Below are positions 20,276-27,086 of a DNA stretch of 64,000 nucleotides, piece by piece. Source of the stretch: Escherichia coli (GTDB lineage Bacteria > Pseudomonadota > Gammaproteobacteria > Enterobacterales > Enterobacteriaceae). A model generated the notes under the pieces. That model saw nothing but the letters and a program-made list of their open reading frames with translations, did no database searches and had not been told where the DNA came from. The DNA is taken from the NCBI RefSeq assembly GCF_003019035.1, contig NZ_CP027447.1; one strand, given 5' to 3'. The first letter of the stretch is position 1. Each line of letters opens with the position of its first letter. The position numbers and the translations under genes are program-made.

Positions 20276-20527
20276 TGTGGGGTACTGATATTTTGTACAG
20301 TAATATTTAACGAAAATGGCATCAATTAACTTTGGTTTCTCTTGTGATAAAAAGGTTCCTGCTTTATTCAATGTTTACATTTTCTGATTATCGGACGATT
20401 TCTGTTTGGGTTATATTAAGGTAATAAGGTGTAATGGTAATCATATATAAATGGTGACATATATTCATTGCATCAATTGAGTTCAGGGGTGTGGTGAAAA
20501 AAGTGACTTTTGAAGGACCAAAGGGAA

Positions 20528-20860
20528 ATGAATACTCTGCCGAGTGATTGTATTATGGTAGTTAATATAAGTGATAATTTCATTGAAACTGTAGTGGCCG
20601 GATGTAATAACGTTAAAAAAATCCAACAGTTGGTTTTTTCTGGTAATAAAGACCGATTTAGCAAAAATATCAGTAATGAAAATGAAAAACTAAGTGTAAT
20701 CAATGAACTTATTAGTGCGGACGCTTTATTTTGCTTTGGTTATGGTTGGTATCCATCAGAAATTATAGCTGATTATACGCAGAAAGGTATTATTAACAGA
20801 CCCTATAAGATAATCACCTGGACTAGTAAAACGACATTTTTGATTGAAGAGCGTAATTAA
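20528..20860 (+). CDS. hypothetical protein (island ORF A), no family recognised
   Basis: ORF track 20510..20860 (TTG start); first ATG at 20528 preceded by aaggga; 110 aa MNTLPSDCIMVVNISDNF...; AT-rich codon usage. Confidence 0.4.
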   Translation: MNTLPSDCIMVVNISDNFIETVVAGCNNVKKIQQLVFSGNKDRFSKNISNENEKLSVINELISADALFCFGYGWYPSEIIADYTQKGIINRPYKIITWTSKTTFLIEERN

Positions 20861-20934
20861 TTCGGAGGGAAGATGAGAAAGGTTCGGGTTACCATTACAT
20901 TATACTCTTCAGAGCAAAAACGGCATCGTGGCCT

Positions 20935-21201
20935 TTGTTACCATCTAACCGTTTTTACGGCTGTCCTGTCTTTTTTAAAGGGAGCAATGAATTATCTTCA
21001 TATGGTTATGACTGCCGGATTGACATTGACAGCTATGGAAAAATGATTCACCCTGGCGAAACGGTCCACAATCTTGAGATGGCATTTTTATCTCCTGAAC
21101 TTGTAATGTCGTGGCTCATCTGTGGCAGTGAGTTTCTGCTGTGGGAAGCCGGATTTATAGGTGAAGGCGTTATAACGGATATTTTACCCGCAGAATTATG
21201 A
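20935..21201 (+). CDS. hypothetical protein (island ORF B); start uncertain (TTG 20935 per ORF track, ATG 21043 alternative; frame is open back to 20857)
   Basis: 88-aa frame ending ...LICGSEFLLWEAGFIGEGVITDILPAEL; overlapped by a 57-codon frame-2 ORF 20873..21046 that has a GGAGGG ribosome-binding site. Confidence 0.3.
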   Translation: MLPSNRFYGCPVFFKGSNELSSYGYDCRIDIDSYGKMIHPGETVHNLEMAFLSPELVMSWLICGSEFLLWEAGFIGEGVITDILPAEL

Positions 21202-21216
21202 TAAAAGGATGATGAA

Positions 21217-21660
21217 ATGAGTAAATTCCCTATTGTTAAATTGCATGAAAAATTTACGCTGGTGTCATGGGAACCCGTATTAGATTATAGTGGACTCGGT
21301 CAACTTATAAAAAATTATTTTCATATTGCCATTCATGATGAGTATTTAACCTTTGTTACCCTGATGGCAGACGTTGAATTAAAGGTGATGGATTCATCGT
21401 GGCATATCAGAATTTGGGGAGCCGCAGGATGTAGTGAGATGAATGCCGCATACCATATTCAGGATTATATTCCAGACGCTCTGGCGATTGGCGATAATGA
21501 AGGCGGGAAAGTGATTTTTTATGCCGAAGGAAAGGAGGGATTTGGTTTGTATCTCGTCGGTTTCGATAATGTAGATCTTGATGATGCGGTGTATATCGCC
21601 CCATCATTAAACGCACTGTTAATTGAGGGAATAGGGGCGGAAATTTTTCTTGCTGCCTGA
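21217..21660 (+). CDS. hypothetical protein (island ORF C); tentatively immunity-protein-like (SUKH/SMI1-KNR4-type C-terminal pattern)
   Basis: 147-aa ORF with good RBS (aaggatga, 21205-21212); C-terminal IAIGDNEGGKVIFYAEGKEGFGLYLVGFDNVDLDDAVYIAPSLNALL; family assignment is pattern recall, not a search. Confidence 0.5.
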   Translation: MSKFPIVKLHEKFTLVSWEPVLDYSGLGQLIKNYFHIAIHDEYLTFVTLMADVELKVMDSSWHIRIWGAAGCSEMNAAYHIQDYIPDALAIGDNEGGKVIFYAEGKEGFGLYLVGFDNVDLDDAVYIAPSLNALLIEGIGAEIFLAA

Positions 21661-21667
21661 GTGATAA

Positions 21668-21700
21668 TAAAAAAGAAGCACCTGTTACCCAGATGCTTCT
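21668..21700 (-). terminator. rho-independent terminator downstream of araD (hairpin also abuts the end of island ORF C)
   Basis: agaagca-cctgttacccag-atgcttct stem-loop; on the minus strand followed by TTTTTTATT. Confidence 0.5.
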
Positions 21701-21706
21701 CTTAAA

Positions 21707-22402
21707 TCACTGCCCGTAATATGCCTTCGCACCATGCTTACGCAGATAGTGTTTATCCAGCAGCGTTTGCTGCATATCCGGTAACTGCGGCGCTAACTGA
21801 CGGCAGAATATCCCCATATAAGCGACCTCTTCCAGCACGATGGCGTTATGCACTGCATCTTCGGCATTTTTGCCCCATGCAAATGGGCCGTGAGAATGGA
21901 CCAGGACGCCGGGCATTTGCGCCGCATCGATACCCTGTTTTTCGAAGGTTTCTACGATGACGTTACCGGTTTCCCACTCATATTCACCGTTGATTTCTGC
22001 GTCGGTCATTTTGCGGGTGCAGGGAATGGTGCCGTAGAAATAGTCGGCGTGGGTGGTACCGGTTGCTGGAATCGACTGACCCGCCTGCGCCCAGATGGTG
22101 GCGTGGCGCGAGTGTGTGTGCACAATGCCGCCAATGGACTGGAATGCCTGATAGAGCAGCCGGTGAGTTGGCGTGTCGGAGGAGGGCTTTTTCGTTCCTT
22201 CAACCACTTCACCGGTTTCGATGCTGACCACGACCATATCGTCAGCGGTCATGACGTTGTAATCGACGCCGGAAGGTTTGATCACCAAGACGCCGCGCTC
22301 GCGATCAACGGCGCTGACGTTACCCCATGTGAGCGTGACCAGGTTATGTTTTGGCAGCGCCAAATTGGCTTCTAATACCTGGCGTTTGAGATCTTCTAAC
22401 AT
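21707..22402 (-). CDS. araD: L-ribulose-5-phosphate 4-epimerase
   Basis: ORF track 21707..22432; start trimmed to [30 protein letters not shown]... giving 231 aa. Confidence 0.95.
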
Positions 22403-22424
22403 GTTGACTCCTGAGAGGTCGTTT

Positions 22425-22462
22425 CCCCTCACCCCGGCCCTCTCCCCAAAGGGGCGAGGGGG
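22425..22462. repeat. GC-rich imperfect palindromic intergenic repeat (cccctcaccc...ccctctcccc-aaa-ggggcgaggg)
   Basis: Read directly; a second copy lies at 27961-28010. Confidence 0.6.
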
Positions 22463-22470
22463 AAAACAAT

Positions 22471-22652
22471 GCCGGATGCGCTTTGCTTATCCGGCCTACA
22501 AAATCACAGCGTGTAGGCCTGATAAGACGCGTCGGCGTCGCATCAGGCGGTGAATGCCGGATGCGCTTTGCTTATCCGGCCTACAAAATCACAGCGTGTA
22601 GGCCTGATAAGACGCGTCAGCGTCGCATCAGGCGTTACACACCTGATGCGGC
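22471..22652. repeat. REP/BIME-type palindromic elements, ~84-bp unit duplicated in tandem
   Basis: gccggatgcgctttgcttatccggcctacaaaatcacagcgtgtaggcctgataagacgcgtc(g/a)gcgtcgcatcaggcg present twice (22471-22554, 22555-22638) plus a partial palindrome to 22652. Confidence 0.8.
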
Positions 22653-22655
22653 TAC

Positions 22656-24158
22656 TTAGCGACGAAACCCGTAATACACTTCGTTCCAGCGCAGCGCGTC
22701 TTTAAACGCTGGCAGGCGGGTGTCGTTATCAATCACCGTGATTTCAATGTCGTGCATCTCGGCGAACTGGCGCATATCGTTGAGGCTCAGCGCATGGCTG
22801 AAAACGGTATGGTGCGCGCCACCAGCGAGGATCCACGCTTCGGAAGCAGTTGGCAGATCCGGTTGCGCTTTCCACAGCGCATTCGCCACCGGCAGTTTCG
22901 GCAGGGAGTGCGGTGTTTTCACCGTGTCGATGCAGTTAACCAGCAGACGGTAACGATCGCCGAGATCAATCAGACTGGCGACAATGGCCGGACCGGTTTG
23001 AGTGTTGAAGATCAGGCGGGCAGGATCTTCTTTACCGCCAATACCGAGGTGCTGAACGTCGAGGATCGGCTTCTCTTCGACGGCGATCGACGGGCAGACT
23101 TCCAGCATATGGGAGCCGAGCACCAGGTCATTGCCTTTCTCGAAGTGATAGGTGTAGTCCTCCATAAAGGAGGTGCCGCCCTGCAGACCGGTTGACATCA
23201 CCTTCATGATGCGAAGCAGGGCGGCAGTTTTCCAGTCGCCTTCGCCCGCAAAGCCGTAGCCCTGCTGCATCAGACGCTGTACGGCCAGACCAGGAAGCTG
23301 CTTCAGACCGTGCAAATCTTCAAAGGTGGTGGTGAACGCGTGGAAGCCACCTTGTTCCAGGAAACGCTTCATCCCCAGCTCAATACGCGCCGCTTCCAGC
23401 ACGTTCTGTCGTTTTTCGCCGTGGATTTGTGTGGCAGGTGTCATGGTGTAGCAGCTTTCGTACTCATCGACCAGCGCGTTAACATCGCCGTCGCTGATGG
23501 AGTTCACTACCTGCACCAGATCGCCAACCGCCCAGGTATTGACGGAGAAACCGAACTTGATCTGTGCGGCAACTTTATCGCCATCGGTGACCGCTACTTC
23601 ACGCATGTTATCGCCAAAACGGCAGACTTTCAGATGACGGGTATCCTGTTTAGAGACCGCCTGACGCATCCAGGAGCCGATACGCTCATGTGCTTGTTTA
23701 TCCTGCCAGTGACCGGTAACGACGGCATGTTGCTGACGCATACGCGCGCCGATGAAGCCGAACTCGCGACCGCCATGCGCGGTCTGGTTCAGGTTCATAA
23801 AGTCCATGTCGATGCTGTCCCACGGCAGCGCCGCGTTGAACTGGGTGTGGAATTGCAGCAACGGTTTGTTGAGCATGGTCAGGCCGTTGATCCACATTTT
23901 GGCCGGGGAGAAGGTGTGCAGCCACACCACCAGACCAGCGCAACGATCGTCGTAATTCGCGTCACGGCAAATAGCGGTGATTTCATCCGGCGTGGTGCCC
24001 AGCGGTTTCAGCACCAGTTTGCAGGGCAGTTTCGCTTCCGTATTCAGCGCATTAACGACGTGCTCGGCATGTTGGGTGACCTGACGCAGGGTTTCCGGGC
24101 CATACAGATGCTGGCTGCCAATTACAAACCACACTTCATAATTATCAAAAATCGTCAT
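22656..24158 (-). CDS. araA: L-arabinose isomerase
   Basis: 500-aa [42 protein letters not shown]... Confidence 0.95.
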
Positions 24159-26207: not shown

Positions 26208-27086
26208 ATGGCTGAAGCGCAAAATGATCCCCTGCTGCCGGGATACTCGTTTAACGCCCATCTGGTGGCGGGTTTAACGCCGATTGAGGCCAACGGTTAT
26301 CTCGATTTTTTTATCGACCGACCACTGGGAATGAAGGGTTATATTCTCAATCTCACCATACGCGGCCAGGGGGTGGTGAAAAATCAGGGACGAGAATTTG
26401 TCTGCCGACCGGGTGATATTTTGCTGTTCCCGCCAGGAGAGATTCATCACTACGGTCGTCATCCGGAGGCTCGCGAATGGTATCACCAGTGGGTTTACTT
26501 TCGTCCGCGCGCCTACTGGCATGAATGGCTTAACTGGCCGTCAATATTTGCCAATACGGGTTTCTTTCGCCCGGATGAAGCGCACCAGCCGCATTTCAGC
26601 GACCTGTTTGGGCAAATCATTAACGCCGGGCAAGGGGAAGGGCGCTATTCGGAGCTGCTGGCGATAAATCTGCTTGAGCAATTGTTACTGCGGCGCATGG
26701 AAGCGATTAACGAGTCGCTCCATCCACCGATGGATAATCGGGTACGCGAGGCTTGTCAGTACATCAGCGATCATCTCGCAGACAGCAATTTTGATATCGC
26801 CAGCGTCGCACAGCATGTTTGCTTGTCGCCGTCGCGTCTGTCACATCTTTTCCGCCAGCAGTTAGGGATTAGCGTCTTAAGCTGGCGCGAGGACCAACGC
26901 ATTAGTCAGGCGAAGCTGCTTTTGAGCACCACCCGGATGCCTATCGCTACCGTCGGTCGCAATGTTGGTTTTGACGATCAACTCTATTTCTCGCGAGTAT
27001 TTAAAAAATGCACCGGGGCCAGCCCGAGTGAATTCCGTGCCGGTTGTGAAGAAAAAGTGAATGATGTAGCCGTCAAGTTGTCATAA
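26208..27086 (+). CDS. araC: arabinose operon regulator AraC
   Basis: ORF track 26157..27086; start trimmed to [45 protein letters not shown]... giving 292 aa. Confidence 0.95.

Follow-up and report, generated by a model that had tools for sequence, protein, structure and literature searches.

The araA–araD intercistronic region

In the window (the 64-kb stretch of Escherichia coli DNA analyzed here), the araA and araD genes of the araBAD operon lie on the minus strand and are separated by a spacer of 253 bp (22403–22655). The araA gene (22656–24158; L-arabinose isomerase, 500 aa) ends with the TAA stop codon at 22656–22658, and araD (21707–22402; L-ribulose-5-phosphate 4-epimerase, 231 aa) starts with the ATG codon at 22400–22402, which is preceded by the Shine-Dalgarno sequence AGGAG (22408–22412). 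Both genes are assigned from the list of open reading frames and from the RefSeq annotation of matching loci (identical or near-identical loci in the case of araA). The araD open reading frame itself opens at an upstream in-frame GTG, and the translation start (22400–22412) has been read from the sequence, the annotated araD start being at the same position in related genomes; the sequence AGGAGTCAACATG at this start is conserved in every allele that was compared. Since both flanking genes are on the minus strand, with araA followed by araD, the spacer is transcribed as part of araBAD. The RefSeq records of K-12 have no repeat annotation in the araA–araD spacer.

Two regions farther out differ between the window and other strains. 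Between polB and the araD stop codon, at approximately 20300–21705, there is about 1.4 kb of AT-rich DNA (32–42% GC) that is absent in strains 2016C-3878 and 980-2. This segment has three small plus-strand open reading frames, one of them having a subthreshold match to SUKH-1/SMI1_KNR4 (immunity protein-like; 17.3 bits versus a cut-off of 25.4). Beyond approximately position 27000, downstream of araC, the window departs sharply from 2016C-3878 and 980-2, differing at more than 180 positions per 500 bp and also by gaps, which points to another accessory segment in this part.

The spacer contains a BIME-2 array of alternating Y and Z2 REP palindromes

The spacer holds 2.0 tandem copies of an 85-bp unit at 22468–22637, forming a BIME-2 array in which Y and Z2 REP palindromes alternate. 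Tandem Repeats Finder detects one array (22468–22634; period 85, 2.0 copies, 98% matches, score 327), and a repeat search finds 85-nt copies at 22468–22552 and 22553–22637 that are 96% identical. Each unit consists of one Y-type and one Z2-type REP, inverted relative to each other, the Y REP being of the form CCGGAT...ATCCGG and the Z2 REP of the form CCTGAT...ATCAGG, with a longer GACGCNGACGCGTC center. In the araA-proximal unit 1 (22553–22637, minus strand, 85 bp), the Z2 REP (22598–22633) is followed by the tail-to-tail S linker (22585–22597), the Y REP (22556–22584) and bases of the head-to-head linker. In the araD-proximal unit 2 (22468–22552, minus strand, 85 bp), the same order is seen for the head-to-head linker (22549–22555), the Z2 REP (22513–22548, with the loop variant GCCGAC), the S linker (22500–22512) and the Y REP (22471–22499). 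The linkers, 13 nt tail-to-tail and 7 nt head-to-head, are both conserved across alleles and would be the counterparts of the S motif (between tail-to-tail REPs) and of the s, l or r motif (between head-to-head REPs) of BIME-2 elements.

The assignment to the REP family is based on several properties. REPs are imperfect palindromes of 20 to 40 nt, with GTAG/CTAC at the foot and the tail consensus CTTATC(A/C)GGCCTAC, and the REPs of the array have this structure. The tail consensus CTTATCMGGCCTAC has four exact matches in the 64-kb window, two per strand and all within 22486–22611, the expected number being 0.00 (100 shuffles of the window). The array is extragenic, being located between the araA stop codon and the araD start, and highly repeated, as an array-containing query matches a median of nine places per E. 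coli genome (megablast). When aligned to Y/Z2 references, both hairpin types align to the Y and Z2 halves of the Rfam naRNA4 family (RF02564; the REP325 Y–Z2 pair), and the head-to-head Y/Z2 pair at the unit junction (22516–22581, minus strand) aligns over the full 77-position model, with 57.4 bits (E = 7.5e-10) on the mRNA strand and 41.7 bits on the other strand. The composition is in agreement with the definition of BIME-2 elements, in which z2 and y REPs joined by a short S linker are repeated in tandem, with a strain-variable copy number (PMC3333891).

At the araA side, the array has a degenerate end (22624–22650, minus strand), recognized from its inverted repeat, from the comparison of its junction with other alleles and from the RNA fold. 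It comprises a Y-REP head fragment of nine bases (CGCATCAGG) and a 7-nt linker. The layout and length of this end (GCATCAGG-TGTGTAA-CGCC) are the same as those of the inter-unit junction (GCATCCGG-CATTCAC-CGCC), and the degenerate end is therefore what is left of one more, worn-down unit. Together with the head of the first Z2 REP, this segment forms a 12-bp hairpin that starts 5 nt after the araA UAA codon.

Between the array and araD, there is a repeat of another kind, the BoxC/PIT/TMECO element (22413–22470 with flanks, core 22426–22460, minus strand; type B, with CCG as second loop). Its consensus, CCCTCNCCC-N3-6-GGGNGAGGG-N3-GGGNGAGGG (Holder et al. 2015, PMC4666352), is matched exactly on the minus strand of the window at 22426–22460 and at 27967–28001, where zero matches are expected. 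BoxC elements are recognized by this consensus, by their intergenic position and by the presence of about 20 or more copies per genome, and the element at 22426–22460 has these properties. It is a dispersed repeat, found at a median of 12 and at up to 26 places per genome. The copy at 27967–28001 is of type A, with TTA as second loop, and lies approximately 5.5 kb away, beyond araC.

In the order of the mRNA, the araA UAA codon is thus followed by GUAGC (5 nt), the nine-base Y-REP head fragment and the 7-nt linker; then by two units, each with a Z2 REP, the 13-nt tail-to-tail linker, a Y REP and the 7-nt head-to-head linker; and then by the G/C-rich BoxC/TMECO element of approximately 54 nt and AGGAGUCAAC-AUG of araD. 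BoxC separates the last Y REP from the Shine-Dalgarno sequence of araD, and the BIME array itself therefore does not abut the araD start.

Much of this agrees with the initial annotation, made from the same sequence, which had placed between araA and araD a unit of two inverted REP-like palindromes. The location is borne out by the open reading frame list and by the RefSeq annotation of matching loci, and the palindromes are a Y and Z2 pair, as seen from the four tail matches and the RF02564 alignment. Two tandem copies are indeed found at the coordinates given, although the period is 85 bp and not approximately 84 bp. The single base difference described between the copies holds for their interior (G at 22534 versus A at 22619); two more differing bases (22550/22635 and 22552/22637) are among the three that close the unit, copy 2 bordering here on the degenerate array end. 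A partial palindrome such as was said to follow the copies exists (22624–22650); it is found on the araA side, 5 nt past the stop codon of araA, and not on the araD side. The array had also been described as overlapping the region just upstream of the araD start, which is not the case: it ends at 22468, approximately 65 bp from the ATG, with the previously unmentioned BoxC in between.

Unit number and the presence of BoxC vary between strains

When the spacer is extracted from nine other alleles and compared with the window (ten alleles in total), its length follows 29 + 85n bp in all ten, with 54 bp more when BoxC is present, n being 1 to 4. The observed lengths are 114 bp (n = 1, no BoxC; L003), 168 bp (n = 1, BoxC; 2016C-3878 and L002), 199 bp (n = 2, no BoxC; 980-2 and L004), 253 bp (n = 2, BoxC; the window and SCU-301), 284 bp (n = 3, no BoxC; K-12 and Nissle 1917) and 423 bp (n = 4, BoxC; PT62, TB06052 and 33F4). 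The 284-bp spacer has been confirmed in NC_000913. Tandem copies varying in number at one locus, here n = 1, 2, 3 and 4, are characteristic of BIME-2 elements, and multi-unit arrays of the same design are present in thousands of genomes. Strain-to-strain variation of BIME-2 copy number has already been published (PMC3333891). Among the papers searched, none gives an older account of REPs in araBAD.

The frequencies of these alleles were determined with a query of the unique flanks alone, from which the spacer length is read directly; query coverage is unsuited to separating copy numbers, as pieces matching repeated units get joined. In an even-step sample of 59 of the 5,398 matching genomes, 14% have the 114-bp spacer (n = 1), 24% the 168-bp spacer (n = 1 with BoxC), 17% the 199-bp spacer (n = 2), 2% (one genome) the 253-bp spacer (n = 2 with BoxC) and 44% the 284-bp spacer (n = 3), these percentages being database frequencies in which laboratory derivatives of K-12 are over-represented. 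Among the sampled genomes that lack BoxC, about 80% carry two or three units.

Of the 5,426 complete genomes, 1,565 carry a BoxC element next to the araD start. K-12 is without BoxC there, and 54 bases of 22413–22470 are missing from BoxC-less alleles such as that of K-12, which makes the element an insertion/deletion polymorphism. The pairing of BoxC with a single unit is nearly exclusive (about 1,558 of the 1,565 BoxC-bearing genomes), and BoxC with two or more units is very rare (probably 7 of 1,565).

The allele of the window, with two units and BoxC, is matched by one of the 5,426 complete genomes, that of SCU-301, and the two spacers are identical. A junction query, gated at E = 1e-20, has a coverage of at least 80% in 60 genomes, and SCU-301 alone is fully covered. 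Six of the 60 have BoxC with more than one unit of another sequence type, and the three that were checked (PT62, TB06052 and 33F4) all have four units. In the remaining 53, the match reaches a little way into the stop-proximal palindrome; of these, 14EC033 was cross-checked, and it has one unit with BoxC. The araA–araD BIME-2 is, as such, an already known kind of element, and what is particular here is its rare allele.

The strain-dependent copy number anticipated for this BIME is therefore seen at the araA–araD locus itself, with n from 1 to 4, and the suggested alignment with the K-12 spacer gives three units in K-12 and two in the window. The designation of the array as duplicated is correct in the sense that there are two tandem units; this is fewer than in K-12, and instead of being a new duplication the units are the equivalents of units 1 and 2 in a two-unit allele that is widespread.

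Origin of the two-unit allele with BoxC

The window allele resembles different common alleles at its two ends. Its head, unit 1, linker and unit-2 Z2 REP (loop GCCGAC) are those of the two-unit BoxC-less allele of 980-2, unit 1 being identical at 85/85 positions. The unit-2 S-linker variant, Y REP, BoxC and araD flank are those of the one-unit allele with BoxC of 2016C-3878, and in 280 bp of araD flank there are 2 differences between the window and 2016C-3878, compared with 12 between the window and 980-2. At least 730 genomes, among them Nissle 1917 and ATCC 11775, have the same 51-bp unit junction, with 100% identity, at the ara locus. As the window units match units 1 and 2 of the common allele, the G 22534/A 22619 difference is the old difference between these units and not a new mutation. 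In 980-2 and 2016C-3878, the AraA, AraB and AraC proteins are identical and the AraD and PolB proteins differ, which places a haplotype boundary at the BIME/BoxC spacer.

The simplest reading of these sequence comparisons is that the window allele would have been generated by one in-register homologous crossover inside the repeat, between two common alleles. The two-unit BoxC-less allele would have supplied the araA side through the Z2 REP of unit 2, and the one-unit BoxC allele would have supplied what remains of unit 2, together with BoxC and the araD flank. A second breakpoint cannot be located, because the donor-like alleles are identical on the araA side.

It could also be that the window type is an intermediate, from which the one-unit alleles with BoxC arose by loss of a unit. 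Another origin to be considered is that, in the SCU-301 lineage, an allele with one unit and BoxC had its unit duplicated in tandem, in situ, by replication slippage, unequal sister-chromatid exchange or TnpA_REP amplification. In favor of such a fresh duplication, the 59 nearest genomes by flank identity (99.3–99.5%) all have one unit with BoxC, and the units of the window have the S-linker variant of the lineage, CTGTGATTTT, in common and only one internal base difference; TnpA_REP is also able to add BIME units in vitro (PMC3333891). The junction speaks against it: no 85-bp segment of the one-unit allele yields GGCATT-CAC-CGCC, the triplets that it can provide at this place being TAA, GAA, GTA and GTT. 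In the two-unit allele of the same set of at least 730 genomes, in contrast, the junction between units 1 and 2 matches that of the window, including the GCCGAC loop, with 100% identity, and independent re-creation by mutation is unlikely. A duplication in this lineage is thus regarded as quite improbable. An artefact of assembly, or a similarity due to chance, would be suggested by the rarity of the allele alone, there being one matching complete genome; the probability of this is negligible, as two 85-bp copies at 96–98% identity are far beyond chance, the identical sequence is present in the independently finished genome of SCU-301 and arrays of the same design are so widespread.

Predicted RNA structure and possible roles of the array

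The spacer RNA is predicted to fold with -128.7 kcal/mol (z = -5.8), the individual hairpins having folding energies of -14 to -22 kcal/mol (Y -14.3, Z2 about -21.5). The stop-proximal hairpin (22624–22650) has a perfect 12-bp stem in the window, with -20.6 kcal/mol and a z-score of -5.6. The strength of this hairpin is polymorphic: compared with the -20.6 kcal/mol of the window, alleles of the Nissle type have -17.2 kcal/mol and those of the K-12 type, where the stem is mismatched, have -12.5 kcal/mol. No intrinsic terminator (a G+C-rich hairpin with a U run) is found on either strand between 22250 and 22800, and no sigma-70 promoter consensus, as expected for an internal araD promoter, is found in the spacer. 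The predicted accessibility of the araD ribosome-binding site is nearly equal across alleles (unpaired probability 0.40–0.43 for the Shine-Dalgarno sequence and 0.75–0.92 for the AUG codon), and folding therefore gives no sign that copy number affects araD translation.

By analogy with REPs at other loci, the array may act as a stabilizer of the araBA mRNA and as an attenuator of read-through into araD; the influence on araA mRNA stability raised in the initial annotation is one that REPs in general are reported to have in other operons. Once transcribed in the araBAD mRNA, the array would fold into stem-loops of high stability, by which 3'-to-5' exonucleases would be stopped, such that the araB–araA mRNA is protected. 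The stem-loops would also give a partial, Rho-assisted attenuation of read-through into araD, and the number of units would then adjust the AraBA:AraD ratio to a small extent. In addition, terminating ribosomes could be slowed by the hairpin that begins 5 nt downstream of the araA stop codon. Of REP325, it has been described that it is a partial Rho-dependent terminator (approximately 8- to 10-fold on the downstream gene) and a context-dependent stabilizer of the upstream mRNA, and the same study describes REP effects as context-dependent, REPs not uniformly changing mRNA half-life (bioRxiv 10.64898/2026.03.23.713779). REPs within 15 nt of a stop codon have been reported to stall ribosomes and to lower translation (Liang et al. 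2015, as summarized in PMC12306157).

These RNA effects would be incidental if the main role of the array were played by its DNA, as a BIME-2 site that binds gyrase or as a topological insulator in a strongly inducible operon. According to work cited in PMC3333891, BIME-2 elements are bound and cleaved by gyrase in vivo, and references given in the same paper describe REPs as insulators of transcription-induced supercoiling; the Y-S-Z2 composition of the array fits with this. BIME-2 elements are also a substrate of TnpA_REP (RAYT) for cleavage and strand transfer (PMC3333891). Nothing in the sequence separates a DNA-level from an RNA-level role, the two not being exclusive, and one, two, three and four units are each found in common alleles, so that there seems to be no need for a specific number of sites. 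A mainly DNA-level role is considered unlikely. It has also been considered that the array encodes an naRNA4-like, HU-binding nucleoid-associated RNA that organizes the chromosome. The RF02564 alignment of the head-to-head pair points in this direction, and a complete pair of this kind requires two or more units. In the Rfam search, naRNA4 matches were the only ones found, and these are below the gathering threshold (57.4 versus 59.5 bits); RF02564 is essentially a generic Y+Z2 REP pair, which any BIME-2 would match, and the resemblance stems from this shared composition. The chance that the array encodes such an RNA is very small.

A more far-reaching proposal can be made from the observation that BoxC is almost always accompanied by a single unit, whereas about 80% of the BoxC-less genomes are multi-unit. 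Unit number and BoxC, beside the araD ribosome-binding site, would together be a selected natural dial on the AraB/AraA-to-AraD ratio, and the pairing would reflect functional compensation and not shared ancestry. The ratio matters since too little AraD leads to a build-up of toxic L-ribulose-5-phosphate. We regard this proposal as highly doubtful. The account as a whole, by which the feature is a BIME-2 variable-number tandem repeat, its allele would have arisen by crossover within the repeat and it may have a role as mRNA stabilizer and attenuator, is considered very likely, the last two parts being those that we infer.

Significance

The araA–araD spacer provides an example of an intercistronic BIME-2 that behaves as a variable-number tandem repeat, with six or more length alleles within a single species, and at whose position haplotypes are separated by a recombination boundary. 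With araBAD being so widely used as an experimental system, it is of note that strain differences in the spacer could shift AraD slightly relative to AraA and AraB, and the work on REP325 suggests that such arrays can alter downstream expression several-fold. Of practical value is the use of the spacer as a typing marker and as a natural allelic series for relating REP copy number to operon polarity. Existing knowledge of REPs is unchanged by this locus, and its importance is modest.

Comparison with known systems

The BoxC element of the window is the same as the BoxC/PIT/TMECO elements described by Holder et al. (2015, PMC4666352) when considering its consensus, its intergenic and dispersed occurrence and its strain-variable locus, BoxC/TMECO loci being unusually variable between strains (PMC4666352). 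It belongs to a separate repeat family and is not a BIME component, having been inserted between the last Y REP of the array and the Shine-Dalgarno sequence of araD.

The closest counterpart of the array is the araD–araA BIME-2 of K-12 MG1655 (B315/B316; Ton-Hoang et al. 2012, PMC3333891), which has the same locus, the same flanking genes and the same 85-bp Z2-S-Y unit. This K-12 BIME is cleaved and recombined by TnpA_REP in vitro, as observed with the B315 and B316 substrates (PMC3333891). The 21-nt degenerate head beside the araA stop codon and the AGGAGTCAAC-ATG start of araD are also preserved. The two differ in that K-12 has three units, no BoxC and a spacer of 284 bp, whereas the window has two units, BoxC and a spacer of 253 bp. 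The head-to-head linker is CATTCAC in the window and CATTCAA in K-12, and the stop-proximal hairpin is perfect in the window (-20.6 kcal/mol) and mismatched in K-12 (-12.5 kcal/mol).

The malE–malF REP, the classic intercistronic REP, resembles the araA–araD array in that stem-loops are located between two genes of one operon, although the operon is a different one. In that case, the upstream mRNA is reported to be protected from 3' exonucleases and the upstream gene to be expressed more (Newbury et al. 1987, cited in PMC12306157). The best-studied functional analogy for the array of the window is REP325/naRNA4 (RF02564), the yjdM–yjdN BIME of K-12, in which tandem Y and Z2 pairs are likewise found inside an operon. 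Compared with REP325, the linker in the window is 6 nt shorter and the Y loop is also shorter, and REP325 has six repeats whereas the window array has two.
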